From: Candidatus Latescibacterota bacterium
Lineage (GTDB): Bacteria; Latescibacterota; UBA2968; UBA8231
DNA: 64,000 nucleotides
Reading direction: 5' to 3'
NCBI GenBank assembly: GCA_965217585.1
Contig: OZ244561.1
Span: 6,144,001 to 6,208,000, forward strand
Part shown: piece after piece, positions 3,630 to 60,235 of the stretch
How positions within the stretch are numbered: position 1 is the first letter of the stretch
How the letters are laid out: each line of letters begins with the position of its first letter
Made by a program: the position numbers and the translations under genes
Notes under the pieces: generated by a model
Seen by the model: only the letters and a program-made list of their open reading frames with translations
Told to the model about the DNA's origin: nothing
Database searches by the model: none

Positions 3630-5819
3630 CTAATACACCACGGCTACAGTCCCGCTCATTTCTTCACTTCCGGTATCGGTGTCGACCGCCAGGCTGAACA
3701 GGTATATCCCGGGCGGCACCACCTTCTCCGACAGGTCCGTGCCGTCCCAACGCCACGAGTACCTGCCGCTTTTGTAGTTTTTCACCTCTTCTTTGACGAG
3801 CCGGCCCGCAAGGTCGTACACCCGCACGGTAGTTCTGGCCCCGTCGATCAGCCTGGTGAGATCGTAATTAATCGTGGTGTGGTCGTTGACCTCATCGCCG
3901 TTGGGCGTGAAGACCTCGGGGCTAGCCGCGACATTGATCAGGAAGCTCCCTTTTATCGGCGCCTTTACCACCAGGTCCGCCGGATTGCGCAGGAGCGCGC
4001 TGCCGCCGCTCACTTCGAGCGCGTTGCCCCCGGTCGTCTCCTGGGGAAAGCCTGCCGGATCGTCGGGCAATGCCCTGCCGGAGAACGCCGTTCCGTTTCG
4101 CAGTACGGTGCCCTTGAAGTTTATGCGCAGGAGCGCCGGATTTCCCGCTTCTGGACGGCTGTCCCGTATCCCGGGGAAACGGATCCTGAAGCGATCGTCC
4201 GCTACGAGATCTATGCTGAATTTCCCTTTGACCAGAGGCCCGGCCAGATCGGCGAGCGATTCCTGCGAGAAATCCTCGGCCATGCGGGTCCCGTCCGCCA
4301 GGGACAACTCGACGGCGCCGATCGATGCCACCTGCACGGGGGTGGTGACTTCGAACGAACTGAATCCCAGATCGGAAGCCGTTCGTATATCGGGCACGAC
4401 GGCGTATGAAAACTCCGTGATTTCCCCCAGCTCGGTTTCGCGCGGGGATATCTCGGCTATGACCTCCCGGGCCAGGGACTGGGTGGAAAAATCGAAAGAC
4501 AGGGAGCCGACACCCTTGGCGGAAAAGAGGTCTTCACTGGAGAAATCCACCTTGAACTGGAAGTAGCGGCGCGCTCCCGGCGAGAGGATTTTGACGCCCC
4601 CCCGTCCGGCTTCCATCTCTTCCGCCGTCACGGCTCCGGCGGGAGAATAAGGCGGTGTCCACGGACTCCAATCCTGGATATCGTCGCGCACTAGGCCTTT
4701 TTCCGCGGTCTTCAGTTTTCTGTAATCCTCCTCGGTGAGGGCTATCTCACTCCTCTGTTTTAGGGACAGATCTTTGAACAGGACCAGGGCTTTCCGCACC
4801 CCTAGGCCGGGATGGTCGAGGAGGGTTGTCAATTCCCTTTCATCCGACCCTTCGTCGAATGCGTCCGCCTTCTTCCAGGGCACGGACTCTTGATCGAGAT
4901 CGGTCCTGACGCGGTTGAATACTACGGGCGTGTCGTCCATGCCGCTTCTCGTGCTTATCTCAAAGCGCGACCTGCGGGGATCGCCCAGACTTTCCTCTAC
5001 CCAGCGCAGGTTTCCCCACAGGGCCAGACGCTGGTCCCGCCCCAGCTCGAACACGTCGGACAGGTAGGACGCGACCGGCACGAAACCCTCGCCAAAGACC
5101 TGGACTTCGGCTATTTCAAAGCCGATGGTCGTGTGCGACTTGATGCGGATGAAGCGGACGTACTGGGGGTCTATCGGCAGGTCCACCACTGGATCTTCGT
5201 TTTGCAGGTCGAGCCGGACGCTGGTGAATATCGGCAGTCCGCCGCTCTGCGTCTCCTTCCTCCCGTCGTTGAGCAGGATCTCGTAACCCCTCAAGTAGTC
5301 GTCCTGAAAAGGGAGGTTGGGAGCGGGGAAATCCGGATGGGCGTTGCGCGGAAAAAAAGCGATGCGGCTCACCCCGAAGCGGGCCCCGAGGTCGAGTTGG
5401 ACGACCACGCCGAGGGCGTTGATCCGCCGGATCGAGGTGCTCTTTCTCTCGAAGGCGGTACTGCCGTTATCGTCTATGGCGGTCAGCAGTTCGGCATCGA
5501 GGTTTTCCAGCAGAGTGGGCGCTGTTACCGCACCTCCTCTGTCGAGGAGTCCCAGCGCGATGTTCTCCGTCACATCCGCGCTGGTGGGGAATATCCAGTT
5601 TTCTCTGAAAGCGAAATTGACGACCCCTCCAGGGGTATTTCCGCGGCCCACTTCTTGGGGACCTGCCACGAATACGGGGGCGATGTGTCCGCCGCCCTCT
5701 TGCCAGGGCCGCCCTCCTTCTCCGCCGAGGCGGATGGTGTCTCCCCGCGCTTTGCCGATCGATCCGGGGAAACCTATCAAGCCGGTCAGGATAACCGGGA
5801 CTAGACGAGGAATCAGCAC
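3630..5819 (-). CDS. Secreted discoidin-like domain protein with C-terminal FlgD Ig-like domain
   Basis: Start reassigned to GTG 5819 (AAGAAGGAAAGGA upstream, signal-like VLIPRLVPVILTGLIG). The C-terminus has FTPNGDEVND…YDLAGRLV…WDGTD…VPPGIY, typical of FlgD_ig/CTD. Confidence 0.85.
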   Translation of the reverse strand: MLIPRLVPVILTGLIGFPGSIGKARGDTIRLGGEGGRPWQEGGGHIAPVFVAGPQEVGRGNTPGGVVNFAFRENWIFPTSADVTENIALGLLDRGGAVTAPTLLENLDAELLTAIDDNGSTAFERKSTSIRRINALGVVVQLDLGARFGVSRIAFFPRNAHPDFPAPNLPFQDDYLRGYEILLNDGRKETQSGGLPIFTSVRLDLQNEDPVVDLPIDPQYVRFIRIKSHTTIGFEIAEVQVFGEGFVPVASYLSDVFELGRDQRLALWGNLRWVEESLGDPRRSRFEISTRSGMDDTPVVFNRVRTDLDQESVPWKKADAFDEGSDERELTTLLDHPGLGVRKALVLFKDLSLKQRSEIALTEEDYRKLKTAEKGLVRDDIQDWSPWTPPYSPAGAVTAEEMEAGRGGVKILSPGARRYFQFKVDFSSEDLFSAKGVGSLSFDFSTQSLAREVIAEISPRETELGEITEFSYAVVPDIRTASDLGFSSFEVTTPVQVASIGAVELSLADGTRMAEDFSQESLADLAGPLVKGKFSIDLVADDRFRIRFPGIRDSRPEAGNPALLRINFKGTVLRNGTAFSGRALPDDPAGFPQETTGGNALEVSGGSALLRNPADLVVKAPIKGSFLINVAASPEVFTPNGDEVNDHTTINYDLTRLIDGARTTVRVYDLAGRLVKEEVKNYKSGRYSWRWDGTDLSEKVVPPGIYLFSLAVDTDTGSEEMSGTVAVVY

Positions 5820-5965
5820 AAGTCCTTTCCTTCTTGTTTGACAGCTTTCTCCATCTGGATGGCGAGTATGGCACGCCGCTTGCGCCCGGAATCGTGGATG
5901 GGTTATCGACGAACTGCATCGCGGCTCGGCGACGGGGGATGGGGGGCTCAGTCCCAATTTTGAGA

Positions 5966-6003
5966 TAATATATATTAAGATAGTATTTATTACAGGAGCA
6001 AGC
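5966..6003 (-). promoter_or_regulatory. AT-rich promoter-like region with a perfect 12-bp palindrome
   Basis: TAATATATATTA at 5966-5977 overlaps a TTGCTC-N18-TAATAT arrangement on the minus strand, upstream of the 5819 start. Confidence 0.4.
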
Positions 6004-9252: not shown

Positions 9253-11835
9253 ATGAAGCGAATCTCAATGAATGGATTGAGCCTCATTCTCTATACCCTG
9301 CTACTCAGCGCCACGGTCTGGGCCCAGGGCTATCGCCTTGAGCCGAACCAGTTGGTCATCAGCGAGAGCGACTGGCCGGGGTGGAATTTCCCCGCAGGCA
9401 GTGTGGATTTTAGCGCCGAAGGGGTGCGGCCCCATTTTGTGCGGCGGCAGATCAATGCCGCGCTGAATGCGGGCGCTTTCAGTCGCGAGGACGTGACCGG
9501 GGGCATCCGACGGGCGGGGACCAATTTCGCCGGGGCCGCGCAGCTCATGGACGGTCTGGAAGAAACCTACTGGGAGCCGGAGCTGGCCGCGCCGTTGCGC
9601 GACTGGTGGGTCGAGGTGGATTTGGGCCGGGTGGTGTGGGCCGAGAAAGTGGTAGTGAAATTTGTCGCCGAAGGGGCGGGCGATCCGTTTTTGCAGTTCA
9701 AGGTGCTCACCTCCAATGGCGATGAAGCCTTCCAGGGTAGTGAGAGCCTGAACTACCGGGTGGCCGGTCGCAGCGAGGGGTTGAATAAGACGCAGCGGGT
9801 TTTCGAATATGCTCTGCGTCCTTTCAAGTCGGCGGATCCGGGTTTGAGTGGAGATCTGATCCAGTATGTGCAGATTGTGGCCACGGCCAGCGATGGCCGT
9901 CGTGGGGCGGAGGTCAGCGCGTCTGGTTGGGAGGGCTTGGCGGCGGCGGATCGGGGGGATGTGCTGTATTTCCGCCGGGAGTCGTCGGGGGTGGAGCGGG
10001 AGGTGGCGCAGGAGGAATACGAGACCATAAGCGATGCCCAGTTGCAGGGTCCGATCCGTTATTATCGTTCGGAGCGTCCTCGGTTGGCGGAAGTGGAGGT
10101 GTGGACGGTGGGGGAGAATATTGGTTTGGGCTGGAAGGAGCGCGGGGGGTCGATCGAGGGATTTGGGGAAGCGGGCGGACAATCCAATGCAGTCGACGGC
10201 GATTATACCACCGTCTGGAGTGCAGAAGCGGGATTTTCCACCAAGGGCTTGGGCGGTCGAGATGACGATTTCACTGTGTTGATCAAGAACCGGGATCGGG
10301 ACCTCTTATTGGACCTGGGCACCTGGTACTGGGTCGATCGCGCCTTTATCGTCTATGGCAGTGCCACATTCCCCAATTATGTGCTCAATTTTTCGGATGG
10401 CAGTCTGGCACCCGATGGCAGCCAGATCTTTACCTCCGTGGTTGCGCGCGGCAGAGACGATGTCACGCTTGGCAGCGAGGCCCGTGCGCCCGCCGGGTCG
10501 CTGCCGACGAACACGTTCATGCAGGACAATATCTTCTCCTCTATCAAGGGTCGCTTTTTCAGGTTCGACTATCGCGTCGTCACTACCGGGTTGATCCGTT
10601 CTGGTATAAAGGAGCTTCTGCTCTATGGCTCTGGTTTTCTGCCGCAGGTCACCCTGCAAACGCCAGCGATCGAGTTGGGAGATACCCCCCGCATCCTTTC
10701 CACCATCTCCTGGGAGGCCCAAACGCCGCCCGACACCCAGCTACAGATCCGCACCCGAACCGGGAACCGACTCACCGTGGACAAGCATTTCTACGACAAA
10801 CAGGGCGTTGAAGTGGACGAGGCGGCCTATCGCAAGATGCTGTCGTTTCTGCGCGGGGATTCGACGGTCGCCTTTGTGCCCGACGAGGCGGACTGGAGTC
10901 CGTGGAGCCAATTCTACGAGCAACCCGGCGTGGCCATCACCTCGCCCAGTCCGCGGCGCTATATAATGATTGAGGCTGGCCTGCTCTCGGACGATCCCAA
11001 CCAATCCGCGGTGTTGCGCAACCTGAATATTGGTCTGAGAGATCCATTGGCCCACCAAATTCTCGGTGAAGTAACGCCCCGCACAGCCCAACAAAGCGGT
11101 CAACCCGAGGAGTTCACTCTGTTGCTGACGATCCCGCCCAATGAGGAGGGTTCGTCGGGTTTGGGATTCGATCAGGTGCTCTTTGAAGTGCCCCCGAGCG
11201 CCGAAATGGAGTTGGTGGATGTGCGGATGGGCTTGGCCGCCGACCTGACGGCGGGGGGCGGTCAGGTGTATGGGGCGGACGAGCTGGAGGTAAAGGCCGG
11301 GTCTGATTCGTTGTGGGTGCTCCTGCCCGGGGTGGTGCAGTCGGCCGAGTCTCAGGTGGTGCTGCGATTTTCGAGTGTGTTTTATCTGGTGAGCAATGCG
11401 TTTCTGGTCTCGGTGGGTCTGGGGGAGGAGGCTGTGGTGTGGCAGCGGGTGGACGCGACGGCTTCGGGGGAGGGGCTGACGGTGCTGACGCCGGTGGTGG
11501 GTGGACTGTTAGGCGATCTGGAGGTTGTAGGGAATCCATTCACGCCGAACGGAGATGGCATCAACGATGCGGTGAAATTCGTCTTTCCCATATTTAAGAT
11601 GCCGGGTCAGACGGCGCTGGTATTGGCGGTCTACGGTCTCGATGGGGCGCTAGTGCACCGTTCGGCGCAGTCCGTAGCGCACGCCGCTGGTGTTCAGGAG
11701 GTGAGTTGGGACGGCCGGGACCGGGATGGAGTGCTGTTGCCGCCTGGCTTGTATATCTGCCGGGTGGGTCCAGAGGTGGACGCAGAGAGTATCGGCAAAT
11801 CTACAGTGACCACCGTCGTGGCCAGTGTGTACTGA
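9253..11835 (+). CDS. Secreted protein with two discoidin-like domains and C-terminal FlgD Ig-like domain
   Basis: Signal peptide …ATVWA|Q. Discoidin-like motifs MDG…TYW…WVEVDLG and AVDGDYTTVW…LDLG. C-terminus PFTPNGDGIND…WDGRD…LPPGLY. Confidence 0.85.
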   Translation: MKRISMNGLSLILYTLLLSATVWAQGYRLEPNQLVISESDWPGWNFPAGSVDFSAEGVRPHFVRRQINAALNAGAFSREDVTGGIRRAGTNFAGAAQLMDGLEETYWEPELAAPLRDWWVEVDLGRVVWAEKVVVKFVAEGAGDPFLQFKVLTSNGDEAFQGSESLNYRVAGRSEGLNKTQRVFEYALRPFKSADPGLSGDLIQYVQIVATASDGRRGAEVSASGWEGLAAADRGDVLYFRRESSGVEREVAQEEYETISDAQLQGPIRYYRSERPRLAEVEVWTVGENIGLGWKERGGSIEGFGEAGGQSNAVDGDYTTVWSAEAGFSTKGLGGRDDDFTVLIKNRDRDLLLDLGTWYWVDRAFIVYGSATFPNYVLNFSDGSLAPDGSQIFTSVVARGRDDVTLGSEARAPAGSLPTNTFMQDNIFSSIKGRFFRFDYRVVTTGLIRSGIKELLLYGSGFLPQVTLQTPAIELGDTPRILSTISWEAQTPPDTQLQIRTRTGNRLTVDKHFYDKQGVEVDEAAYRKMLSFLRGDSTVAFVPDEADWSPWSQFYEQPGVAITSPSPRRYIMIEAGLLSDDPNQSAVLRNLNIGLRDPLAHQILGEVTPRTAQQSGQPEEFTLLLTIPPNEEGSSGLGFDQVLFEVPPSAEMELVDVRMGLAADLTAGGGQVYGADELEVKAGSDSLWVLLPGVVQSAESQVVLRFSSVFYLVSNAFLVSVGLGEEAVVWQRVDATASGEGLTVLTPVVGGLLGDLEVVGNPFTPNGDGINDAVKFVFPIFKMPGQTALVLAVYGLDGALVHRSAQSVAHAAGVQEVSWDGRDRDGVLLPPGLYICRVGPEVDAESIGKSTVTTVVASVY

Positions 11836-49434: not shown

Positions 49435-49470
49435 TTAGGACCAGACGAAAATCGCCGGTTTGTCCTCCGA
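49435..49470 (-). repeat. Displaced copy of the 3' end of CDS 50578..51426 (direct repeat with 50578-50613)
   Basis: 32/36 nt identical. Encodes SEDKPAIFVWS* versus SADKPEIFVWS*. Confidence 0.9.
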
Positions 49471-49514
49471 ATCACGGCTAGGGATATTACAGTAAATGAC
49501 GTTACGCGGCGGGC

Positions 49515-49790
49515 CTACTCGTCGGCTTCTAACAGGCGTCTAAAGGCTTCGAGGCTGGGCACCTGTATGGCCGCCCGATGTAACTGCTTGAGGCGCTGCA
49601 CATCGTCAATGGCCTCAATGCGGTCGGCCAACTGGCGGGCTTCCTCCGGCTGAAAGCGCAGGGCCAACACTTCGAGGAGAAATTCTCGGCCCCCCTGCTC
49701 AATGCCCTGCTCCAGTCCTTCCTCAACACCTTGTTTGCGGGCTTGTTCGGTCAGGTATTGGGCAACGGGTGATTCGCGGATAATATCCAT
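49515..49790 (-). CDS. Probable internally initiated small C-terminal protein (RpnS-type antitoxin), 91 aa
   Basis: In-frame ATG at 49790 preceded by AAGGAGG (plus-strand 49796-49802, 5-nt spacer) and a U-run. Confidence 0.65.
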   Translation of the reverse strand: MDIIRESPVAQYLTEQARKQGVEEGLEQGIEQGGREFLLEVLALRFQPEEARQLADRIEAIDDVQRLKQLHRAAIQVPSLEAFRRLLEADE

Positions 49791-50435
49791 CAGGCCCTCC
49801 TTAAAAAAAATGGCAGAAACGGTGTCTGGTGCGTACACCAACCCGCTCAGCAGCGACATCGCGGCTAGACAATCGGCTTTCGTCGACCGGTCCATCGTGT
49901 GTGCCTGTGCCGTACGCACACACGCCTGGAGCCAATCCTCCGACGCTTGCCCCGTCGCTGGCTTCATCAACGGCGCAAACGGCAGCAGTCCCATAGGCCC
50001 CGACTCTAAGATCGGTTGGCCGTCCTGTTCGCTCAGCCGGATCACTTGGTACTCAATTAAGATGCGGTGGCCGGGCTGCTCTTGGAAATAGTGTCCCGGA
50101 TCGCGCCGACCTGCCTCCGACCGCAGGTAGATCACGATAGCATACACCGGCAGGCCGTATTGCTCAACAAGCCGCCCGATGTAGCCGACCATCCGCCGCG
50201 GCATGGGCGGGTCGGTCCGGTCGGTGGTTTGAAACTCCGTATGAACCAACACCTCCTTGTCGCCGAGCCGCACGCGCAGCAGGCTATCAGTGCGGCGGGC
50301 TGCGACCGTGGGTTGCTCGGTGTCGAGCACGTCTAAGACTTCGATGTCGTCGCGACCGAAGGTGAAGCGGACAAAATCGTCGGGGTAGTGTTGAATCAAG
50401 TATTTGGAAATGGTATCAAAGTCAGACATCGGCAT
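49515..50435 (-). CDS. Rpn/YhgA-like (recombination-promoting nuclease / putative transposase) PD-(D/E)XK protein
   Basis: DFDTISKYL..YP.DF, RRTDSLL…VHTEFQT, MP.RM..Y, PVY.IVIYL, YQVIRL, LLPFAPLM, C-terminal QG.EEG.EQG.EQG…RF…I..I.D…L..L. Confidence 0.88.
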   Translation of the reverse strand: MPMSDFDTISKYLIQHYPDDFVRFTFGRDDIEVLDVLDTEQPTVAARRTDSLLRVRLGDKEVLVHTEFQTTDRTDPPMPRRMVGYIGRLVEQYGLPVYAIVIYLRSEAGRRDPGHYFQEQPGHRILIEYQVIRLSEQDGQPILESGPMGLLPFAPLMKPATGQASEDWLQACVRTAQAHTMDRSTKADCLAAMSLLSGLVYAPDTVSAIFFKEGLMDIIRESPVAQYLTEQARKQGVEEGLEQGIEQGGREFLLEVLALRFQPEEARQLADRIEAIDDVQRLKQLHRAAIQVPSLEAFRRLLEADE

Positions 50436-50577
50436 TGCCTTGAGGCCGGGGTTAGGCCGTGCCCTGTTGCACCTTAAATAGGTAATGTGTGGACTGGGGG
50501 CCGCTTGTCAATTGGCGGGGAGGCCGCAGGCCCCAGGCGGGGAAGGCCGCAAAACATCGGGCCGACGCGCAGTTCCC

Positions 50578-51426
50578 CTAGGACCAGACAAAAATCTCCG
50601 GTTTGTCCGCCGACATGGCGAAGAAGCAGGCTAGCACGACGCGGCGGCGCTGGCGCGTTAGGCGTTCTACTTCGTGGATGTTTTCGGTGCAGAAGAAGTA
50701 GAGATCGCCCGGCGTCAGCCGGACTTGGACGCGGGGGATGCGGCGCTCGGCGACGTACTCGGCGAAGCGATCTTCGCGCAGGACTTCCTCGACGTGGGGC
50801 TGGGTGCCCCAGCACCGATAGATAAAGGGTTCGTCGGCGCTTGCTGCATCGCCGGTTTGCAAGCACAGCACCCCGGCGAATTGGCGCTGGAAGTTGGCGA
50901 CTGCGTATTCGTAGCCGGGGCGAGAGCGCTTGGCGACGGAGTCGTAGTGGGGTCTGTGGCCTTCGGCGGCGTGATACATGCGGAAGATGGCCGGTCCGTA
51001 GAGCCGTCCGTCTGGTTCGCGCGCGGTTTGTACTACTTTGCCCTCGGCTAGGTCGGATAGGGCTGCGTACATCGTGCGTACCGGATCTGCAAACCCCTCG
51101 AAGAGCGTTGCGAACAACTCGTGGGTGCCGGCGGCGTGGGCGAAGAAGGCCGCTGGGTCGGACCCGAGCCGTCCGAGGCTGGTGCCCAAGTCGAGATAGG
51201 GGCCGCCGCTTAGCTGGGAAGCTTGGCCCACGGTGGCCGGGTCGAAATAACCCCGCTCTTCAAAGCGGCGCATCAAGTCGCGGCAGTGGTCGGGCGAGTA
51301 AGCACCCCGCAGGATCACGGCGGGGACATCGCCGGCGGCTAAAGCGGTGAGAGGGCGGGGCAGGCTGTGCAGCAGAGCGGCCGTGCTGTGGGCCTCGGCG
51401 GGTGTCCAAGCGTTGGGCTGGGTCAT
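50578..51426 (-). CDS. 2OG-Fe(II) oxygenase-like hypothetical protein
   Basis: PAIFRMY…HRPHYD (HxD), GVLCLQ, PGDLYFF…HEV…R.VL. Confidence 0.7.
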   Translation of the reverse strand: MTQPNAWTPAEAHSTAALLHSLPRPLTALAAGDVPAVILRGAYSPDHCRDLMRRFEERGYFDPATVGQASQLSGGPYLDLGTSLGRLGSDPAAFFAHAAGTHELFATLFEGFADPVRTMYAALSDLAEGKVVQTAREPDGRLYGPAIFRMYHAAEGHRPHYDSVAKRSRPGYEYAVANFQRQFAGVLCLQTGDAASADEPFIYRCWGTQPHVEEVLREDRFAEYVAERRIPRVQVRLTPGDLYFFCTENIHEVERLTRQRRRVVLACFFAMSADKPEIFVWS

Positions 51427-53901: not shown

Positions 53902-55380
53902 ATGCGTTACGCACTGGGCATTGACTTGGGCACGGGCAGCACCAAGGCCGTCCTCATCGACGAGGCAGGAGACCTCATCGCTAGAGGGCAGGCCGAGTAT
54001 CCGCTCTACAAGCCGCATCCTGGGTGGGTCGAGCAGGACCCGGAGGAGTGGTGGCAAGCGCTGTGCGCGTCTGCGCGTCAGGCGCTCGCCGATATTGACC
54101 CAGCGCAGGTCGCCTGCGTCGGCCTGTCGGGGCAGATCAACGGCGCAGTATTTGCCGACAGCGCCGGACAGCCCCTGCAGCGGGTGCCGATCTGGCTGGA
54201 CCACCGCTCGCAAGCAGAGTGCGATTGGGCCGAGCAGCGCGCGGGTGACTTGCTGCGGGAGCGGACGCTAATGCGGTTGGGGCCGGTTAATACCCTAGCA
54301 AAGGTACTATGGGTAAAAGACCATGCGACAGATGTTTACCAGCAAAGTCGCTGGATGCTGCTGCCCAAGGATTGGCTGCGCTACCGGCTCACCGGACAGA
54401 TAGCAGCAGAGGTGTCGGATGCCTCGGCAACTGCGGCTTTTGATCTGCACGAGCGCCAGTGGTCCGGGGAAATTTTGGAGGCGTTGGAAGTCGATATGGA
54501 GCTGTTCCCGCCTTTGGTCGATTCGCCGGCCGTGGTCGGGGCCATAACCCCAGCGGCTGCCGAGCAGACCGGGCTGGTGGCGGGCACGCCCGTCGTCGCT
54601 GGCGGCGGGGACATGCCTTGCATGATCCTTGGTGCCGGGGTCATTGAGCCGGGCATTATCAGCTTGGGGATCGGCACGGCGGCGCACGCCACGGCTTTTG
54701 CCGAGACGCTGGACCCACGGGCCTTTGACAAACTCTGGCCGATGTGCCACCCCATCCCCGGCAAATACGCTTGGCTGGGCTGCTCGTTTACCGGGGGGGC
54801 CTCGCTCAAGTGGTTCAAGGAGGAGTTCGGGGGCAGCTACGAAGAGTTAACCGAGGCTGCGGCTGCGGTTCCCGCCGGTGCCGAGGGGGCGTTTTTCATG
54901 CCGTGGCTCGCAGGAAGAGCCACGCCGCGTCCCGATACCCATGCCCGCGGCGGCTTTGTCGGGCTGTCGCTGGCGCACACGAAGGGGCATCTGGTGCGGG
55001 CCGTGCTGGAGGGAGTCGTCTTCGATTTGCGGCACTCGCTCGACTGTTTCGCTGAAATCGGCTTGCCCATTGACGAGCTGCGGATCGGCGAGGGCGGCTC
55101 GCACTCGGAGGTGTGGCGGCAAATCCAGGCCGATATTTTGGGGCGCGACGTGGTGCGGATTGCCACCGACGATCTGTCGGCGATAGGGGCGGCGTTGTTG
55201 GCGGGCATCGGCGGCGAACTCTATGCGGATTTTGCCACTGCTTGCCAGCGCACGGTCAAGTTGGCCGAGACGGTGCGCTGCGATCGGGAGCGGGTCGAAT
55301 ACTACCGGCGGGCTTTTGAGCGCTATCGGGCGCTTTATCCGGCGTTGCGGGAGTGGTATGGGGGATCGGTCGGCGAGTGA
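53902..55380 (+). CDS. xylB: Xylulokinase / FGGY carbohydrate kinase
   Basis: GIDLGTGSTK, EQDPEEWW, GLSGQ, IWLDHRS, LLPKDWLR.RLTG…SDA, GGGD, RAVLEGV, GGS.S..W.QI.AD. Confidence 0.82.
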   Translation: MRYALGIDLGTGSTKAVLIDEAGDLIARGQAEYPLYKPHPGWVEQDPEEWWQALCASARQALADIDPAQVACVGLSGQINGAVFADSAGQPLQRVPIWLDHRSQAECDWAEQRAGDLLRERTLMRLGPVNTLAKVLWVKDHATDVYQQSRWMLLPKDWLRYRLTGQIAAEVSDASATAAFDLHERQWSGEILEALEVDMELFPPLVDSPAVVGAITPAAAEQTGLVAGTPVVAGGGDMPCMILGAGVIEPGIISLGIGTAAHATAFAETLDPRAFDKLWPMCHPIPGKYAWLGCSFTGGASLKWFKEEFGGSYEELTEAAAAVPAGAEGAFFMPWLAGRATPRPDTHARGGFVGLSLAHTKGHLVRAVLEGVVFDLRHSLDCFAEIGLPIDELRIGEGGSHSEVWRQIQADILGRDVVRIATDDLSAIGAALLAGIGGELYADFATACQRTVKLAETVRCDRERVEYYRRAFERYRALYPALREWYGGSVGE

Positions 55381-55465
55381 GAAGAGCTATTCCAAAGGGA
55401 AACGATTTCGCCATGACACTGCGCCCATTAAGACTGTGGATAATTAGAGCGAAAGGTAACATCGC

Positions 55466-56758
55466 ATGATTACGCAAATTGAGATCGGGGGCTATCGGCT
55501 TCTCGACGAGTTTAAGGCAGACTTCAAGCCGCTGACCGTGGTGATCGGTGCCAATGCCGTCGGCAAAAGTACGCTGATCGATTGTCTGCAACTGATTACC
55601 GAGTGTTGCGATTTTCCGCTAAATACCGCGATTGGTTGGCATTATGGGGCAGCGTCCCTTCTTACCTCAGGTAACGGGAATGGGAAGCTGACTTGGAAAA
55701 TCACATTTCATAGGCCCGCCACATGGGCTGCTTTTCCATTGGAGGCGGAAAAGTCCTTGGTGTACGAGGTTCTTCTCCAAGCCGATGCACAGGGTCAGAT
55801 GCACTCGCGATACGAGGTTCTCAGAAACCAAGAGCCAGCACCGGGACACACGGAACCCCTCAAGTTTCTGGAGACAACCCCGTACCATCGACACATATTC
55901 GACAGAAAACAACGCCGATTGATACCGTTTGATGAAGCGCAATCTTCACCTAATCTCGTCCGCGAATCCGATTCGGCGGAAGCCACCTCGGAAAGCGGCC
56001 TGATACAGCCTGCACAACAGGAGGCTGCGTTATTACTTTCACAAATCCGATTCTTCAACGAGTTTCCCATTCCTTCCTCAGCACGCGTTCTATTGGCGAA
56101 CATGGCGTTCTATCCGGGTTTCGATGTAACACGGTCTTCCACGCTACGCACCAAGGCCGACGATATCAAGCCAGTTACAACATTATCGGCTAACGGTGAT
56201 AACTTAGGTACCGTGCTGCACGAAATCCTGACCCGATATGATTATCGTTCAGTAGCAGAGAAGTTGCGTGATTTTCTGCGTGTAGCCTATCCCGCATTTG
56301 AGGAAATTCATTGCGATACCACCTTTGGAACGCCTCCACAAGTGCTGGTTGGGGTGCGCGAGAAAGGCATGTCTCGCTCCATGAATCTGTGGGATCTTTC
56401 GGATGGTATGCTGCGATTCCTGTGTCTGGCGACAGCTCTGTTGAATCCGCGACCTCTACTGCTAGTGGCGATTGACGAGCCGGAATTAGGATTGCATCCC
56501 GGCCTGTTGCCAATTGTGGCAGAAATGATCAAAACAGCGGCGGAGCGCACTCAAGTGTTGGTGACGACACACAGCCCGGATTTACTCAACTGCTTCGATA
56601 TAGCCGATGTTGCCGTGATGGCGCGAGATGCAGACGACGCACAGGTCACGTGGCATCGTCCTGCGGACCGCAAGACGCTTGTGCGAATGCTCAATAACGT
56701 TACTGGCGAAACGTTGGGAGACCTGCACCGCTCCGGCGAATTGGAGGCCGGCGCATGA
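55466..56758 (+). CDS. ABC-type (AAA_21-like) ATPase, putative defence/TA component
   Basis: Walker A GANAVGKS, signature LSDGM, Walker B AIDEPE.GLHP, H-loop TTHSP. Visibly more AT-rich than its neighbours. Confidence 0.88.
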   Translation: MITQIEIGGYRLLDEFKADFKPLTVVIGANAVGKSTLIDCLQLITECCDFPLNTAIGWHYGAASLLTSGNGNGKLTWKITFHRPATWAAFPLEAEKSLVYEVLLQADAQGQMHSRYEVLRNQEPAPGHTEPLKFLETTPYHRHIFDRKQRRLIPFDEAQSSPNLVRESDSAEATSESGLIQPAQQEAALLLSQIRFFNEFPIPSSARVLLANMAFYPGFDVTRSSTLRTKADDIKPVTTLSANGDNLGTVLHEILTRYDYRSVAEKLRDFLRVAYPAFEEIHCDTTFGTPPQVLVGVREKGMSRSMNLWDLSDGMLRFLCLATALLNPRPLLLVAIDEPELGLHPGLLPIVAEMIKTAAERTQVLVTTHSPDLLNCFDIADVAVMARDADDAQVTWHRPADRKTLVRMLNNVTGETLGDLHRSGELEAGA

Positions 56759-57423
56759 AGATATGGATTTTTGTAGAAGGGGATTCAGAGGTTAGGGCAC
56801 TGTCAGCATTGTTGAACGGCTGGAAGCAGCAGCTTAGAAAGAAGGGCTGGGGCATTAAGCTAGTAAGTCTCGACGGCAAGTCCAACTATTTCAAGAGAAT
56901 TGGACCCCGTGCAGCCGAGAAGTTGGAGAATGATACGCGCGATCTCGTTGTGGGCTTACCCGATCTCTACCCAAATCGAGATTATGCGAATACGGATTAC
57001 AGACACAACAATCTGCAAGAGCTTCAAGGCGTTCAAAGGCGCTTGGTGGAACAGCAATTGCGGGAGCAGATGGGAAAACGGACTGATATTGCCAGTCACA
57101 TGGCGCGTTTTTATCCCAGCGCGTTGAAACACGATTTGGAAGTGCTAATCCTTGCTGCGACGAGTCAACTTCAGGCCCAACTCAAGATGTCGAACAGGCC
57201 TAGAGGCTGGCGACAACCTCCAGAAGAGCAAAATCAAGACAAACCCCCGAAGAAAGTTGTTGAGGAACTCTTTCGGAAAAATATCAGACATGCCTATAAG
57301 CCAACCACGGATAGCTACGCCATTCTCAGAAATGCAGACTTGCGAGAGGTGGCAGAACAGTGTCCGACATTCCGTGCTATGATCGATTGGATCGGCGAGA
57401 AGACCGGCGTACCTGGGTATTGA
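56755..57423 (+). CDS. DUF4276-like TOPRIM-fold protein
   Basis: IFVEGDSE, DLYP, HDLEVLILA, PEEQN…P, Y.P..D, CPTFR. ATGA overlap with the ATPase gene. Confidence 0.8.
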   Translation: MKIWIFVEGDSEVRALSALLNGWKQQLRKKGWGIKLVSLDGKSNYFKRIGPRAAEKLENDTRDLVVGLPDLYPNRDYANTDYRHNNLQELQGVQRRLVEQQLREQMGKRTDIASHMARFYPSALKHDLEVLILAATSQLQAQLKMSNRPRGWRQPPEEQNQDKPPKKVVEELFRKNIRHAYKPTTDSYAILRNADLREVAEQCPTFRAMIDWIGEKTGVPGY

Positions 57424-57499
57424 ACGTGGAAGCCAAGAAGTGGTAGGGACTAAAACTATCAATGAAAAAGACGACTCGATCTCTGGAATTATTTGGCAT
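57377..57499 (-). pseudogene. Degenerate 5' stump of a NYN (LabA/DUF88) ribonuclease gene
   Basis: GAGG RBS, then MPNNSRDRVVFFIDSFSPYHFL. Three single-base changes restore the NYN motif IDGFNLYH. Homology is lost where it meets the DUF4276 stop. Confidence 0.6.
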
Positions 57500-57511
57500 A
57501 AAACCTCGTAC

Positions 57512-57645
57512 AAAAAACCCCCGCTCCGGCTATGCCGGATGGCGGGGGGGCTAGAGCACCTATGCCCTAGGGGGTATGCTCCACAGAGTACATCCTGCCG
57601 CAAAGGCAGGGACTTGGGGCACCTACGTCCCCAAGGGAGTATGCC
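57512..57645 (-). ncRNA. Candidate structured leader RNA of four consecutive hairpins ending in a U-tract
   Basis: Stems at 57613-57635, 57594-57610, 57554-57581 and 57518-57548 followed by U6. (G/A)GCATA occurs four times. Confidence 0.45.
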
Positions 57646-57663
57646 TGTAATATAGTCAATTAT

Positions 57664-57742
57664 TAATCGTTTGAGGACACGGAAGTAGTCGGTTGGGGAT
57701 TTGTCGTTGGTCCAGCACTTGTAGTTGAGACCCTAGAGCGGC
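57664..57742 (-). repeat. Displaced, decayed copy of the near-3' end of CDS 59012..60235 (direct repeat with 59042-59118)
   Basis: Translates L*GLNYKCWTNDKSPTDYFRVLKRL versus LQGLNFEYWTDDGSA-EYARVLKRL; 56/72 nt over 24 aligned codons. Confidence 0.85.
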
Positions 57743-57857
57743 ATGGATTTTTGTCCTCGTCGGTTGCTTTCCGTGGGGATTTGCGTTTTTAGGAGCCTGC
57801 TTGTGCGTCCGGCGTGGTCTGGCGCGTTTAACCCTTACTTGAGGAGATCATACGATC

Positions 57858-58934
57858 ATGGAGAACTATAACAACGAACGGGAACACGACCTGTGCCTGA
57901 TTTCTTTGGTCGAAGCGCTGGACGAAGCAGCTCGGCTCGACATATTCCGAGATGCCTTTCGCATCAAAGGGGATCTTGGACCATTGAGGTGGTCGGGGCG
58001 CAGAAGAGCCTTCGATGTGGAATTGGAATTCACCAATCTATCTGTTGCGATCGAAACAAAGGTCCACTCGGATGAGAGCGGAAGATGGTGGTCGCCGTGG
58101 CAGACAGAACGCATCGCCGAGCAGCGAAGAGAAGTGGAGGGACCATGTTTCTTCATTACCTACGGAACTTCCGAATTCTACACGAAGCCCTACGAGCCGG
58201 GCCCTGCATCTCCGGAGTTTCAGCATATTCCTCTGGACAGAATGATCCATCTGGTCGAGTCATCTCTGGCGGCTCTTCCGCAGATCGAACAGTGCACCGC
58301 TTCAGTCGAGTGGCTGCGGCTTATGAGGCTCGAAAAGGAGAAGCGCGAGAAAGCTCAGGAACTCCTGCATTCGTTCGCACAGTTCCGTACGCGTTATCTC
58401 GAAGTCCATGGAGAAAACGATTTTCCGAGAGGCCGCATAGCATTTTCCGCTCCCGAGCTAGCTTTTCCCGTCTTTTCGAAACTGGTGGAGCATTGGGACG
58501 AGTCGGAGTATGTCGCTAAATTCGGACGGCTCTCGATCTATCCCATCGCTCGGGGATATTCTCCGGTTGTGGACTCGATACTCAATTTCTGGGAAATATG
58601 GGATGAGGGACCAGCACTGGCCCCGGACATCGTTGGGTCTGAACAATACCTGTACCTCGAAATCAACGAGGACTTTAATCTCAATCTGAAGCTGGACGAG
58701 GGACAAGCTGAGCCGGACGAGGAACAGAAAGAAAGGATCTGGGAACGCCTGTGCGGCGCTAGGTGGCCTTCGGGCGTGAATGCGTGCCGCCGCGACTACC
58801 GACAGAATTCTCGGGTGTTATACGAGGTAGATTTCGGTTTTCTGGCGAACGTAGACTGCCTGTCTAGAGTGGTGAGCAACCTCGGCCGCACGCTTGAAGT
58901 TATCTTTGGCGCGCTGAACAACGACCGTGAATGA
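57858..58934 (+). CDS. Orphan PD-(D/E)XK nuclease-family protein
   Basis: GAGGAG RBS. ERE.D…FDVELEF…VAIETKV.S.E…QTER, i.e. the D-x(n)-E-x-K catalytic pattern. Confidence 0.75.
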   Translation: MENYNNEREHDLCLISLVEALDEAARLDIFRDAFRIKGDLGPLRWSGRRRAFDVELEFTNLSVAIETKVHSDESGRWWSPWQTERIAEQRREVEGPCFFITYGTSEFYTKPYEPGPASPEFQHIPLDRMIHLVESSLAALPQIEQCTASVEWLRLMRLEKEKREKAQELLHSFAQFRTRYLEVHGENDFPRGRIAFSAPELAFPVFSKLVEHWDESEYVAKFGRLSIYPIARGYSPVVDSILNFWEIWDEGPALAPDIVGSEQYLYLEINEDFNLNLKLDEGQAEPDEEQKERIWERLCGARWPSGVNACRRDYRQNSRVLYEVDFGFLANVDCLSRVVSNLGRTLEVIFGALNNDRE

Positions 58935-59011
58935 CCAGCGATGGGTTGAGATCGTCGGACTTGCAACGACCGTCCGCTTTGGTCAACTCGCCCACGACTA
59001 ATGGCAACATT

Positions 59012-60235
59012 CTACCCCTCAATAAACGGCCCTTCTTCCTGTAAGCGCTTGAGGACGCGGGCGTATTCGGCGGAGCCGTCGTCGGTCCAGTACTCGAAGT
59101 TGAGGCCCTGGAGGCGGCCTTCTTCGGTGCCGGTCAGGCCGTTGATGTCAGGGCTGCCCAAGCTGTAGGCTTTGTGGCCGCCGGCAAAGTGCAGCACGCC
59201 GATATAGTCGTACCTAGGCAGATGGGCGCGGGCGGCGGCTTGGGCTAGGGCTTCTTCGTCCACTTCCACGCCTAGCCCCGGGCCTTCGGGCACCGGTGAA
59301 AAGCCCTCGACGACCGGAATTTTTGCGGCGATATCGAACTCGAACTGGTCGTCTATGTTGATGGTATGGGCCGAGGCCGTGGGCAGAACTGCGGCTTGAT
59401 GCAGGGTGAGGGCTTTCATCAGGGTATTGCCGCATTGCTGGATCAGGCACTGGACATTGGCCTTGCCGTAGGCAAAACCCGAGGTCAGGGTGTCGCCAAT
59501 GCGCCCGCCAATCATGTAGATATCGGCGACCCCGCGGATCACTTCTTGGATGCCGCCCAATTGGGGGACGTGCATGACGAGGGGGATTTTGGTTTTCTCG
59601 CGCAGGGTGCGCCAGCCGTCGATATCGCTCCACACTAGCGGGTCTTCGAGAAATCCGACGAGCGGTGATTTTTCCAGTTCGGCGATAATGGGTAGGATTG
59701 TGCCCAGCGTGCGGTTGTGGTTGAGATCCCAGTGCAGCTTGAAGCCGGGTGGTGCCACTTTTTCCGCCGCTCGGGTCTGCTCGATGACGTCGTAGCGGGC
59801 GTTTGAGTGCATTTTGAAGACGCAGTAGCCCTGATCTGCGGCGCGCTGGATCTCGCCGGCGAAAACGTCGGGGGGGCAGGGGCGGGTCCAAGCGGCGCAG
59901 GGGACGGCGTCGCGCACTTTTTGCCCCATTAGTTTGTACGCGGGCACGCCTACATGCTTGCCCATCAAGTCGTAGAGCGCCATGCCTAAGGCCATGTGGA
60001 AATTGTTGAGCAGATAGTCGAAAGGATTGGTGCCGATGAGCGCGTCGATCTCGGCTTGGGGTACGGGCCTGGGGTTATCTTCGTAGTCACCGTAGCCGAC
60101 TAACCCATTGTCGCCGTGAACTTTAACCACTAGATGTTGATCCATATCGTACATGCGCATGCGGCCGGCGTGGTTGTCGTAGCGCTTGGCTAGGGGCATG
60201 GTGATGGGGATTTGCTCGATGTGGGCGATTTTCAT
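59012..60235 (-). CDS. Mandelate racemase/muconate lactonizing enzyme family protein
   Basis: VKVH.DNGLVGYG, MALYDL.GK..GVP.YKL.G.KVRD, FKMH, WDLN, LEDP, PEGPGLGVE.D. Confidence 0.88.
   Translation of the reverse strand: MKIAHIEQIPITMPLAKRYDNHAGRMRMYDMDQHLVVKVHGDNGLVGYGDYEDNPRPVPQAEIDALIGTNPFDYLLNNFHMALGMALYDLMGKHVGVPAYKLMGQKVRDAVPCAAWTRPCPPDVFAGEIQRAADQGYCVFKMHSNARYDVIEQTRAAEKVAPPGFKLHWDLNHNRTLGTILPIIAELEKSPLVGFLEDPLVWSDIDGWRTLREKTKIPLVMHVPQLGGIQEVIRGVADIYMIGGRIGDTLTSGFAYGKANVQCLIQQCGNTLMKALTLHQAAVLPTASAHTINIDDQFEFDIAAKIPVVEGFSPVPEGPGLGVEVDEEALAQAAARAHLPRYDYIGVLHFAGGHKAYSLGSPDINGLTGTEEGRLQGLNFEYWTDDGSAEYARVLKRLQEEGPFIEG

Follow-up and report, generated by a model that had tools for sequence, protein, structure and literature searches.

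How does a single nuclease-like gene come to lie between the intact end of a core gene and a decayed copy of that same end, with no mobility gene beside it? A locus in the genome of an uncultured Candidatus Latescibacterota bacterium raises this question, and we analysed it within a 64,000-nucleotide stretch of DNA (the window). The spread of defence genes without mobility genes, and their stacking in hotspots, are still poorly explained. We propose that passive cargo is the most likely role of the gene, called P, which encodes a candidate defence nuclease of PD-(D/E)XK-like type and is under purifying selection. In our assessment, P together with its upstream region U was probably inserted with a long target duplication, and the decayed copy, fragment F, would be the old enolase gene end left with its native downstream region.

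The locus (Table 1) is variable and poor in GC: a hotspot that lies, in a Candidatus Latescibacterota genus, between a xylulokinase gene and an enolase gene of convergent orientation. As the preliminary description had it, P is antisense to the enolase-superfamily gene E and lies between the displaced and the live ends of that gene.

Table 1. Features of the hotspot, in window coordinates
Feature	Position	Strand	Basis and remarks
A, xylulokinase-type FGGY kinase gene	53902..55380	+	Pfam FGGY_N 1.5e-67, FGGY_C 1e-28; left core flank of the hotspot
HEC-01-like candidate defence pair	55466..57423	+	AAA_21 ATPase 55466-56758 and DUF4276 protein 56755-57423
NYN-gene 5' remnant, ~23 codons (MPNNSRDRVVFFID...)	57431..57499	-	blastn against G002
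L, structured intergenic region	57491..57643	-	identity to G012/G002; RNA fold
F, displaced enolase gene end (codons -33 to -9), decayed	57664..57742	-	alignment, blastn
U, upstream region travelling with P	57743..57857	+	junction sequences; no enolase similarity
P, gene of a 358-aa conserved hypothetical protein	57858..58934	+	homologs, motif, dN/dS
Tail, 67 nt between P unit and enolase stop	58941..59007	.	common to this genome and G001 only
E, live enolase-superfamily gene (MR/MLE, acid-sugar-dehydratase-like)	59012..60235	-	Pfam MR_MLE_C 5.6e-17

Gene E has orthologs of 93–94% identity in 10 genus genomes and a dN/dS of 0.08; every NCBIfam match to it falls under its cut-off. The two genes on the xylulokinase side overlap by 4 nt and match Pfam AAA_21 (4.4e-31) and DUF4276 (6.5e-18), as well as the PADLOC models HEC-01A (1.1e-52) and HEC-01B (4e-11), which qualifies them as a HEC-01 candidate defence pair. 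The pair is also found in G001, G007, G022, and G014 (83–91% identity) and is older cargo of the hotspot. The adjacent NYN remnant corresponds to a gene that is intact in G002, where the ORF matches Pfam NYN (7.1e-20); positions 57431–57643 are 86.6% identical to G002 by blastn. Region L, with 88% identity to G012 and 87% to G002, lies 59–69 nt downstream of the enolase stop in these two genomes, and ends in a GC hairpin and a U-run right before the NYN start codon. Its predicted RNA fold has an energy of -72.3 kcal/mol (z=-3.6); the Rfam search of region L found no family (the best match, E=0.27, is noise), and a scan for consensus promoters and terminators returned nothing exceeding the shuffle expectation. 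The 67-nt tail lacks significant similarity to the native spacer, the xylulokinase end and the NYN gene (p=0.42–0.80), and it resembles nothing else in the genome significantly.

Where does fragment F originate? Local alignment of 57600–57860 with 59000–59260 yields exactly 57664–57742 against 59042–59118, the latter being the live counterpart inside gene E. The score of 58 compares with a mean of 17.7 (sd 2.3, maximum 31) in 1000 mononucleotide shuffles (z=17.4), and 60 of 80 aligned columns are identical (75%), the alignment containing one insertion of 3 nt and one gap of 1 nt. The homology first noticed at these same coordinates is thus real, and the 56/72 matches then claimed are close to our count. 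Read on the minus strand, F gives PL*GLNYKCWTNDKSPTDYFRVLKRL, as compared to RLQGLNFEYWTDDGSAEYARVLKRL at the live end. The CAG>TAG stop and the in-frame insertion of one codon (T) are both present, as had been described, together with AT-biased substitutions, while the final 9 codons, the stop codon and part of the spacer are missing. When F was searched against the whole 7.3-Mb genome by blastn, only the adjacent gene end matched below E=0.1 apart from F itself (75%, 80 nt, E=1.6e-6). Likewise, a protein search of the genome with the F pseudo-peptide recovers the C-terminus of gene E only (E=0.008) and none of the 53 other enolase-superfamily matches. As both nucleotide and protein matches lead only to the adjacent gene, an origin from a paralog is ruled out.

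The preliminary description had suggested that the extra codon might mark a particular (SPTDY-like) allele. This codon is absent from all 12 genus-level full-length and 14 class-level gene ends compared, one further class-level locus being N-masked, and is therefore a decay indel rather than an allele. Moreover, F is nearest to the alleles of its own clade (69–75%) and more distant from those of G016 and G023 (58–68%). A foreign allele with an extra codon is thereby rejected as its source.

Positions 57560–57742 are collinear with the L–spacer–enolase 3' end of G002 and G012, except that one block of about 75–80 nt is absent. This places the loss of the final 9 codons, correctly noted before, in a deletion next to the native NYN leader. 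In both relatives, region L with the NYN leader continues directly to an intact enolase stop, which indicates that F is the old, displaced gene end. On its other side, the enolase homology stops: U, compared with enolase positions 59119–59300, gives z=-0.9 in the window, -0.2 in G001 and -0.95 in G014. U is therefore not derived from the enolase gene, the F|U boundary is a true junction, and a weak 13-residue protein extension of F was accordingly not counted. We regard F as a scar without function. Mis-assembly of the record does not account for the arrangement, since Logan contigs of the runs X1 and X4, possibly the source sample and so not independent, span 57381–59038 with 0 differences. 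Throughout, the Logan evidence consists of contigs; uncovered parts, depth and absent joints carry no weight in it.

What does the site look like in relatives? The preliminary description had proposed a search for relatives lacking the nuclease, and they prove to be the rule: P occurs in just 4 of 31 genus genomes, in one copy each, and the enolase 3' end is single-copy in those without it. Clean empty sites, in which the xylulokinase and enolase 3' ends overlap convergently, are found at 3 of 14 orthologous loci (G003, G021, and G006); G013 has an empty-site junction too, with most of its enolase gene deleted. The remaining orthologous loci hold other cargo, namely NYN, HEC-01, a PIN toxin-antitoxin pair or an FGE-sulfatase-like gene. 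G022 has three copies of a WelO5-like gene end.

The genomes and contigs with P show that the event was larger than originally claimed, as the xylulokinase 3' end was duplicated too. In G014, a 176-nt duplicate of the xylulokinase 3' end (89%) begins 6 nt past the P stop codon. In G008, P is followed by a decayed empty-site junction of xylulokinase end and enolase end. The joint of P with the xylulokinase end also occurs in contigs X5 and X7 from two other studies, and one X7 contig runs from 57615 to 58936 and then from 55224 to 55478, thus joining F, U and P to the xylulokinase-end duplicate. The presence of this duplicate beside the P unit, in relatives and metagenome contigs alike, suggests that the whole hotspot target was duplicated. 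The X7 contig represents a lineage with about 10% divergence, in which the F|U junction is found again; this ties F to the arrival of P.

The P unit ends on the right at 58939/58940, 5–6 nt beyond the stop codon, in G014, G008 and the X5 and X7 contigs. On the left, U is joined to F in this genome and to the NYN remnant, at about 57750, in G001 and G014, while the G008 junction lies ~15–20 nt upstream of the P start codon. All four combinations of the left junctions (F|U or NYN remnant|U) with the right ones (tail and gene E, or xylulokinase end) exist, which requires either later recombination within U–P or separate events. None of the genomes examined holds the full predicted primary structure on a single molecule.

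Could F instead be the remnant of some larger tandem duplication, whether of the enolase gene or of the entire hotspot, produced by unequal exchange independently of P, with P entering the junction region later? G008 contains a second decayed enolase copy, comprising the 3' end and 142 nt of the 5' end around an internal deletion, and three partial xylulokinase ends in succession, so that stacking of whole haplotypes does occur at the hotspot. Our genome-wide repeat survey, described below, is moreover blind to such large duplications. However, U follows directly beyond F with no trace of the enolase gene, a tandem enolase copy is present at 0 of 10 full-length orthologous loci, F is still linked to U–P in the diverged lineage of the X7 contig, and the ends of the P unit are constant wherever it is found. 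We therefore consider this origin quite unlikely, and retain insertion of U–P with duplication of the target.

Is the footprint restricted to P? We surveyed the genome for repeats of ≤350 nt, using exact 16-mer seeds and our own ORF calls; the survey misses old pairs, its filter makes larger duplications invisible and removed many tandem paralog repeats, and its thresholds are arbitrary. Of 17 young isolated repeat pairs around low-GC DNA, 13 place one of their copies on the 3' end of a gene that faces outward; the proportion is 18 of 72 among the other isolated pairs and 14 of 267 among random placements. The repeats are 40–339 nt long and 81–98% identical, and involve many unrelated target genes; one young pair, at genome positions 610088/611254, measures 269 nt at 97.8% identity. 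The bracketed cargo is of defence or toxin-antitoxin type and includes Hachiman, toxin-antitoxin pairs, methylases, GNAT, MazF, HepT/MNT, and SDR with GntR. The empty-site check covered one case, Hachiman, for which at least 9 relatives have a single-copy empty site. No integrase or recombinase domain was detected in 37 inner ORFs of 16 repeat-bracketed regions, which contain one DDE_3 fragment, and Pfam found no recombinase domain in the island ORFs at the P locus.

One further pair concerns a 306-aa ORF without a Pfam match (49515–50435), the “Rpn case” of the preliminary description, which is bracketed by a 35-nt gene-end duplicate in the same manner. The P event was rightly regarded as the older one, with a repeat identity of 75% against 91%. 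The reading of this footprint as a signature of nucleases or Rpn proteins has to be abandoned: with Hachiman, toxin-antitoxin, GNAT, methylase and other cargo inside such repeats, the footprint is not specific to nucleases. At the P locus, it fits insertion with long target duplication.

What kind of protein is P? Its family is no orphan, contrary to the label first given to it: we found 166 homologs across phyla, and the family comprises 99 clusters at 50% identity and resides in defence-type islands of several phyla. The dN/dS values of 0.27 and 0.22 indicate purifying selection. Seven residues (E7, H10, D53, E55, E66, K68, and Q82) are invariant in 45 aligned members, and D53, E66 and K68 form the conserved D...(D/E)xK acidic/lysine motif. 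Pfam assigns no family to P at E≤0.01 and gives no match at E≤1 in the 45 members, Transposase_31 included; PHROGs, NCBIfam and PADLOC yield no match, and the sequence profile search of the PDB gave noise only (E 0.16). By hhalign, the P family reaches a probability of 0.9% against the PDDEXK_4 set at full length, 20.8% (E=0.0011) with its N-domain, and 0.7% against a single PDDEXK_4 protein. Two remote relatives match PF14281 at E=0.004, short of the cut-off, while 21 of 30 ESM-Atlas matches of whole P share the PDDEXK_4 family set, as do 23 of 30 named matches of the N-terminal part. In locus L046, a PDDEXK_4 gene occupies the same island as the P homolog. With no Pfam match and hhalign values of 0.9% and 20.8%, the PD-(D/E)XK label originally attached to P is a lead: an N-terminal PD-(D/E)XK-like domain is probable, and a PD-(D/E)XK fold is predicted as likely. 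P is the sole ORF of an insert of about 1.2–1.3 kb, and neither a methyltransferase partner nor a restriction-modification family match was found for it in Pfam, NCBIfam or PADLOC. The P family, compact and conserved, with an invariant nuclease-like motif and no Pfam model, can reasonably be put forward as a candidate for a novel defence function carried by one gene.

P could also be the agent of its own movement, as a recombination-promoting or homing-type nuclease that would cut at or near core-gene ends and thereby drive its insertion and the duplications; this is the Rpn-like reading of the preliminary description. The rearrangement junctions do hug P in all haplotypes (on the right 5–6 nt past the stop, on the left at 57743–57750 in two contexts and ~15–20 nt before the start codon in G008), its D..ExK motif is invariant, and most of its neighbours in the protein language model belong to PDDEXK_4. 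Flanking direct repeats of ≥98 nt occur at 5 of 6 Latescibacterota P loci and at 0 of 11 loci in other phyla, and double-strand breakage has been proposed as a common property, for restriction-modification genes, in Furuta 2010 (PMC2853133). However, the P homologs outside Latescibacterota lack flanking repeats, so that the repeats follow the host lineage and not P, and the identical footprint surrounds cargo without a DNA nuclease (GNAT, MazF, HepT/MNT, and SDR with GntR). Furthermore, nothing points to a proliferation of P, which is single-copy and present in 4 of 31 genus genomes, and its nuclease activity and fold are predictions. An active role of P in its insertion is thus, in our view, rather improbable, and passive cargo remains our preferred reading, which does not account for one near-coincidence: the F|U junction and those of G001 and G014 lie within 7 nt of each other. 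Site-specific integration, in which a trans-acting tyrosine or serine recombinase would use the gene ends as attachment sites, as with islands at tRNA or tmRNA genes, would explain why the direct repeats include the 3' end and the gene is kept whole, as in 3'-end integrating elements, and why modules accrete in tandem between partial gene ends in G022 (three WelO5-like ends), but we deem it highly improbable, because neither the island ORFs nor the 37 inner ORFs of the 16 regions encode a recombinase domain (apart from the one DDE_3 fragment), repeats of 35–339 nt at many unrelated targets would require many different recombinases, the junction positions vary among haplotypes, and the P locus has no recombinase with a fixed core at both junctions.

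We therefore return to insertion with long target duplication, and infer the following history, in which a single event accounts for U–P. The 1.2-kb unit of U and P (57743–58940) would have entered the low-GC hotspot flanked by these two convergent genes, xylulokinase and enolase, and the target would have been duplicated at length in the process. In one copy, the enolase gene would have stayed whole and under selection (59012–59118 onward). The other copy, freed from selection, would have been shortened by the 27 nt nearest the stop and by some of the spacer, and what is left of it, F, would have drifted to 75% identity while still joined to the native spacer, the terminator-like leader L and the NYN gene. 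The young examples keep the stop-proximal part that F is missing, so the model has to assume that this part was deleted later. The duplicated target probably spanned the inter-core region from about xylulokinase codon -54 to enolase codon -33. With both gene ends duplicated, cargo would have two slots, one on either side of P, the second of which would have collapsed in this genome to the 67-nt tail; why a tail of this kind stands between P and the live stop is left unexplained by the model. As for the route, we favour a circularised donor fragment, with the cargo and a piece of the flanking core gene on it, that would have integrated by a single crossover; haplotypes of the hotspot might equally have exchanged DNA by an unequal or illegitimate event to the same effect.

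A broader idea, which we put forward tentatively and consider unlikely as it stands, is that the duplicated gene ends are more than scars and serve, in Latescibacterota, as functional components of a cassette system that needs no integrase. Target duplication would then supply each cargo with homology arms, by which it could be excised in circular form and enter naive genomes anew through one homologous crossover. Copying both flanking ends would double the hotspot, each slot could swap its cargo, and nuclease cargo such as P might speed the movement by cutting DNA nearby. Such a system would account for the moving and stacking of defence and toxin-antitoxin genes without a mobility gene, and its route, a circular intermediate followed by a single crossover, is testable.

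How does the P locus compare with known systems? Prophage e14 and phage 21 integrate at the icd 3' end and carry a replacement gene end; such 3'-end prophages and islands depend on an integrase that the element itself encodes and on an attachment core that is fixed. The P locus shares with them the live gene end and the displaced pseudo-end around an insert, but shows no integrase and no fixed core. Among nuclease families, PDDEXK_4 (PF14281) proteins are ~350 aa long, and the order D...(E)xK...(D/E)E...Q recurs in the N-terminal third of P, whereas its C-terminal 220 residues are unrelated. P also resembles the recombination-promoting nucleases Rpn/YhgA (Transposase_31; Kingston et al. 2017, PMC5350276) as a small, partnerless gene, probably of PD-(D/E)XK type, in variable regions; it lacks, however, a Transposase_31 match, as the ORF of the “Rpn case” lacks any Pfam match. 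The titles and abstract openings of the Rpn/YhgA papers covered make no mention of such a footprint. Nor did we find, in the parts of the literature covered (on Rpn/YhgA, on long target duplication with defence since 2015, and on defence hotspots with direct repeats), a description of it around non-restriction defence cargo; PMC12595487, from what its text presents, concerns integrase-bearing islands at tmRNA.

The closest precedent is the insertion with long target duplication that Furuta, Abe and Kobayashi reported at restriction-modification genes (2010, NAR, PMC2853133), where Nobusato et al. 2000 (Gene 259:99) is cited for the phenomenon. In the cases set out there, repeats of more than 30 bp and up to ~420 bp, often across stop codons, occur without mobility genes, and restriction-modification genes are inserted in cultivated, mostly naturally competent bacteria. 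The P locus shares with these cases a short foreign insert of deviant GC without mobility genes, an intact gene, and direct repeats well beyond the length of transposon target duplications (35–339 nt in this genome), whose counterpart in relatives with an empty site is single-copy. With respect to their screen, its repeat exceeds 30 bp (80 columns, 75%), its target is single-copy in relatives without P, and its insert is below 20 kb and free of integrase and transposase, but does not hold both R and M homologs. The mechanism class of long target duplication thus fits the P locus, and the cargo class does not. Unlike the cases as presented there, the cargo is a single uncharacterised nuclease-like gene in an uncultured Latescibacterota bacterium, whose genome brackets Hachiman, toxin-antitoxin pairs and others in the same way. 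The repeat copy F is, in addition, old (75% identity) and truncated, and the duplicated target seems to take in both flanking gene ends, doubling the hotspot; duplication can thus copy both ends and so multiply a hotspot. The P locus and at least 13 younger cases in one genome extend the restriction-modification footprint to other cargo and to an uncultured phylum: a pattern of insertion with duplication already described for restriction genes is repeated many times in one uncultured bacterium.

The decayed copy of the enolase-superfamily gene end (F) was recovered exactly at the coordinates given in the preliminary description. Local alignment of 57600–57860 with 59000–59260 returned the match 57664–57742 / 59042–59118 with a score of 58, as compared to 17.7 ± 2.3 and a maximum of 31 in 1000 shuffles. 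Within the 7.3-Mb genome (G000), the neighbouring enolase end is the only non-self match to F below E=0.1 (blastn, E=1.6e-6). Its reading frame matches the adjacent enolase gene alone (tblastn, E=0.008), and no paralog among the genome's enolase-superfamily genes was matched. This superfamily has undergone a large paralog expansion in G000, where the protein has 54 matches, itself included, three of them at 52–56% identity. On the minus strand, F reads PL*GLNYKCWTNDKSPTDYFRVLKRL and the live gene RLQGLNFEYWTDDGSAEYARVLKRL; the stop codon, the extra codon, and the absence of the last nine codons are all as first described. Contigs of the metagenome runs X1 and X4, both of which may be the source sample, cover 57381–59038 with 0 differences. 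About 1.3 kb past the right end of the window (G000:C1:6209308-6209406), a further stretch of 99 nt is 81% identical to the enolase 5′ region (query 1080–1179) and adjoins a paralog that is otherwise only ~28% identical at the protein level; similar short matches occur in the relatives G001 and G010. A conserved motif or a patch of gene conversion could account for this stretch.

Where does F lie relative to the native locus? The segment 57560–57742 aligns in one piece with the L–spacer–enolase 3′ end of the relatives G002 and G012, and the window lacks a single block of ~75–80 nt, which comprises the last nine codons, the stop codon, and some of the spacer. Judged from this one-piece alignment, F occupies exactly the place of the resident gene end relative to the native downstream DNA. 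U, directly beyond F, does not resemble the enolase sequence that would come next (z=−0.9), so F|U is a genuine junction to foreign DNA. The closest sequences to F are the alleles of its own clade (69–75%), with lower values for G016/G023 (58–68%) and noise level for other families. The orthologous allele with the extra codon, which had been proposed as a check, is absent from all 12 genus-level and 14 class-level ortholog ends read. The idea that F is a foreign functional allele is ruled out: about 10 of its 25 codons are altered at the protein level, the majority of changes being towards A/T, which indicates decay. F itself is functionless. In the relative G005, the enolase gene is an independent pseudogene reduced to its last ~239 nt (locus L032, 8230–8467, window orientation), and its TAA stop falls on the glutamine codon that has become TAG in F, probably by coincidence.

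The interval between the two convergent core genes is low in GC (0.49–0.56, versus 0.60–0.68 in the flanks), and F lies within it. Read from the left, the interval contains the AAA_21 ATPase, DUF4276, the NYN remnant, L, F, U, P, and the tail. The HEC-01-like AAA_21 ATPase also resembles MADS MAD3, below the MAD3 model cut-off. L comprises two imperfect direct units (GGCACCTAYGYCCC..GGG..TATGC) and the terminal hairpin, folds with z=−3.6, and is conserved in G002, G012, G014, and G008, without a match in Rfam. L may terminate the enolase transcript, serve the NYN gene as a regulatory leader, or do both. The tail could not be related to NYN, to the native spacer, to the xylulokinase end, or to other sequence in the genome.

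Features of the locus and of the second repeat-bracketed ORF in the window
Feature	Position	Strand	Remarks
306-aa ORF (“Rpn case” of the preliminary description)	49515–50435	-	within 49436–50613
Xylulokinase-type FGGY core gene	53902–55380	+	left flank
AAA_21 ATPase + DUF4276 pair	55466–57423		PADLOC candidate defence system HEC-01, 1.1e-52 and 4e-11
NYN gene remnant		-	first ~23 codons
L, structured leader	57491–57643		ends in GC hairpin + U-run
F	57664–57742	-	decayed enolase-superfamily gene end
U	57743–57857		115 nt, between F and P
P	57858–58934	+	358-aa gene, between U and tail
Tail	58941–59007		67 nt, between P unit and enolase stop; shared with G001 only
Enolase-superfamily core gene	59012–60235	-	right flank

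The enolase gene served as the query against 40 relatives, and 14 loci were compared with the window. Ten genus members carry the enolase ortholog at 93–94%. The relatives without the putative nuclease that the preliminary description called for exist: G003, G021, and G006 have empty sites in which the core genes overlap by ~12 nt, G013 keeps the empty-site junction with the enolase gene largely deleted, and the empty-site joint 55358>59009 is also present in contigs of X1 and X5. The order is xylulokinase–NYN–L–59 nt–enolase in G002 and xylulokinase–L–69 nt–enolase in G012. HEC-01 (83–88% identity) and other DNA occupy G007 and G022, including an FGE-sulfatase-like gene in G022; G010 and G011 hold a DUF6364/PIN_3 pair, and G005 gene remnants alone. 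G001 combines HEC-01 and an internal remnant of NYN with U, P, the tail, and the enolase gene; L and F are both absent there. Given this varied cargo, the xylulokinase–enolase locus is a hotspot with many haplotypes.

P is present in 4 of 31 genus genomes. In G014, the HEC-01–NYN remnant–U–P series gives way, 6 nt past the stop codon of P, to a duplicate xylulokinase 3′ end (176 nt, 89%), and then to NYN, L, and a toxin–antitoxin pair. In G008, a frameshifted P precedes a decayed junction between a xylulokinase end and an enolase end, of the kind found at empty sites, with an internally deleted enolase copy, a third short xylulokinase end, NYN, and L further on. The P|xylulokinase-end joint also occurs in contigs from two other studies (X5, X7). 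One X7 contig matches 57615–58936 at ~90% and then 55224–55478, so that it contains F–U–P joined to the duplicated xylulokinase end and the beginning of HEC-01. From these G014, G008, X5, and X7 junctions, U–P has the same ends in several contexts (left 57743–57750, right 58939/58940), with a displaced enolase end on one side and a displaced xylulokinase end on the other. Each of the two left junction types occurs with each of the two right ones, giving four combinations. The collinearity of F with G002/G012 and the joined F–U–P of the X7 contig support the proposal of a displaced gene end linked to P's arrival.

The simplest reading is one U–P insertion with duplication of the whole inter-core target. 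The mechanism is an inference. Insertion with this duplication would have created two cargo slots, and subsequent deletions and exchanges would have given rise to the haplotypes seen today. The window's second slot would have shrunk to the 67-nt tail. Recombination inside U–P would account for the four junction combinations.

P compared with its G001 and G014 orthologs gives dS 0.19–0.30 and dN/dS 0.27 and 0.22, and the enolase gene compared with G001 gives dS 0.24 and dN/dS 0.08. F and the live enolase end differ at 25% of positions overall. If these changes are taken as neutral, the displacement of F would predate the split of these genomes, in agreement with the presence of F–U–P in the ~10% diverged X7 lineage. 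The suggestion that this event is older than the window's second case also agrees with the 25% divergence of F versus 91% identity there.

What is P? It had been described as an orphan. A word-indexed search returned 166 homologs at E≤0.001 in several phyla, none with a Pfam domain or an informative name, and a profile search run exhaustively over 1.84 billion representatives returned 99 clusters, so the orphan label does not hold. Residues E7, H10, D53, E55, E66, K68, and Q82 are invariant in 45 aligned members. Pfam, NCBIfam, PADLOC, PHROGs, and PDB profile searches with P gave nothing usable. When each of the 45 members was scanned against Pfam, no family appeared in more than three (best E 0.014); HamA matched three of the 45 (best E 0.031). 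Two remote relatives hit PDDEXK_4 at E=0.004, below the cut-off. In hhalign, the probability against the PDDEXK_4 set was 0.9% for the full-length family and 20.8% for the N-terminal domains only, with the D..ExK..Q motifs aligned. In ESM-Atlas, 21 of 30 matches of whole P and 23 of 30 named matches of its N-terminal part share the PDDEXK_4 family set. A PD-(D/E)XK fold is the prediction we consider quite probable. At its other loci in Latescibacterota, P has defence-like neighbours (DUF2779, PIN, PDDEXK_4, AAA_14/DUF4143, M78 peptidase, SNF2 helicase), and flanking direct repeats of at least 98 nt accompany 5 of 6 Latescibacterota P loci versus 0 of 11 from other phyla. At L046, a locus of another Latescibacterota, a P homolog neighbouring DUF2779, PIN_2, HTH, and PDDEXK_4 lies amid three direct-repeat pairs of 81–98% identity in permuted order (4509–4767 / 10205–10462; 5702–5884 / 9854–10036; 5896–5994 / 10563–10661), which points to a shuffling of modules in this island as well.

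The window's second case is the 306-aa ORF, which has no Pfam match. It lies between two copies (49436–49470 and 50579–50613; 35 nt, 91% identical) of the final ten codons plus stop codon of a WelO5-like gene at 50578–51426; this gene end occurs in three copies in G022 and two each in G010 and G011. Using exact 16-mers, we surveyed the genome for isolated direct-repeat pairs 600–8000 nt apart with repeat runs of at most 350 nt. Among the 89 pairs found, 17 bracket DNA at least 5 GC points below both flanks, and in 13 of these 17, one copy is the 3′ end of a gene pointing into the bracket from outside, a geometry seen in 18 of 72 other pairs and 14 of 267 random placements. The genome thus holds at least 13 such pairs, which are young (40–339 nt, 81–98% identical; e.g., G000:C1 145278–145539 / 149971–150223; 610088–610356 / 611254–611522; 3168054–3168390 / 3171883–3172216); compared with them, the F pair is the most diverged. 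Hachiman, toxin–antitoxin pairs, methylases, ThiF, and large ATPases are among their low-GC cargo, which includes no integrase. We scanned 37 inner ORFs from 16 of the 17 regions, the remaining region being a tandem paralog pair without an inner ORF. They include HamA with a helicase (Hachiman type), DUF433/DUF5615, GNAT, Uma2, a UDG-like protein, Dam methylase with DUF7687, PIN_3, MazF, HepT/MNT, AAA_21, AAA_14/DUF4143, ThiF, and a 1675-aa ATPase; these 37 ORFs contain no integrase and one DDE_3 fragment. At the Hachiman case, both flanks overlap by ~210 nt in the genomes of at least nine relatives, which therefore have a single-copy empty site. A reading of the footprint as nuclease-specific and Rpn-like is not supported, as it also surrounds Hachiman, toxin–antitoxin, GNAT, and methylase genes, among other cargo.

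Insertion with long target duplication is a pattern for which Nobusato 2000 is reportedly the founding paper. Our literature search found no report of the footprint around other defence cargo, and no title or opening of an abstract found for Rpn/YhgA mentions it. The pattern was so named by Kobayashi's group, whose article describes foreign genes without mobility genes, flanked by direct repeats of >30 bp and up to ~420 bp (PMC2853133). The targets are single-copy in empty-site genomes, and the repeats often span a stop or start codon; the cases there comprise all types of restriction-modification genes, mostly in competent species, and the mechanism is left open, with double-strand breakage suggested (PMC2853133). 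The F–U–P locus matches this pattern: it shares the structural features set out in the article, but differs in its cargo, which is not of the restriction-modification kind (PMC2853133). The locus is of interest because this lineage repeatedly shows the footprint, free of integrases, around defence cargo, and also because hotspots may have been doubled.
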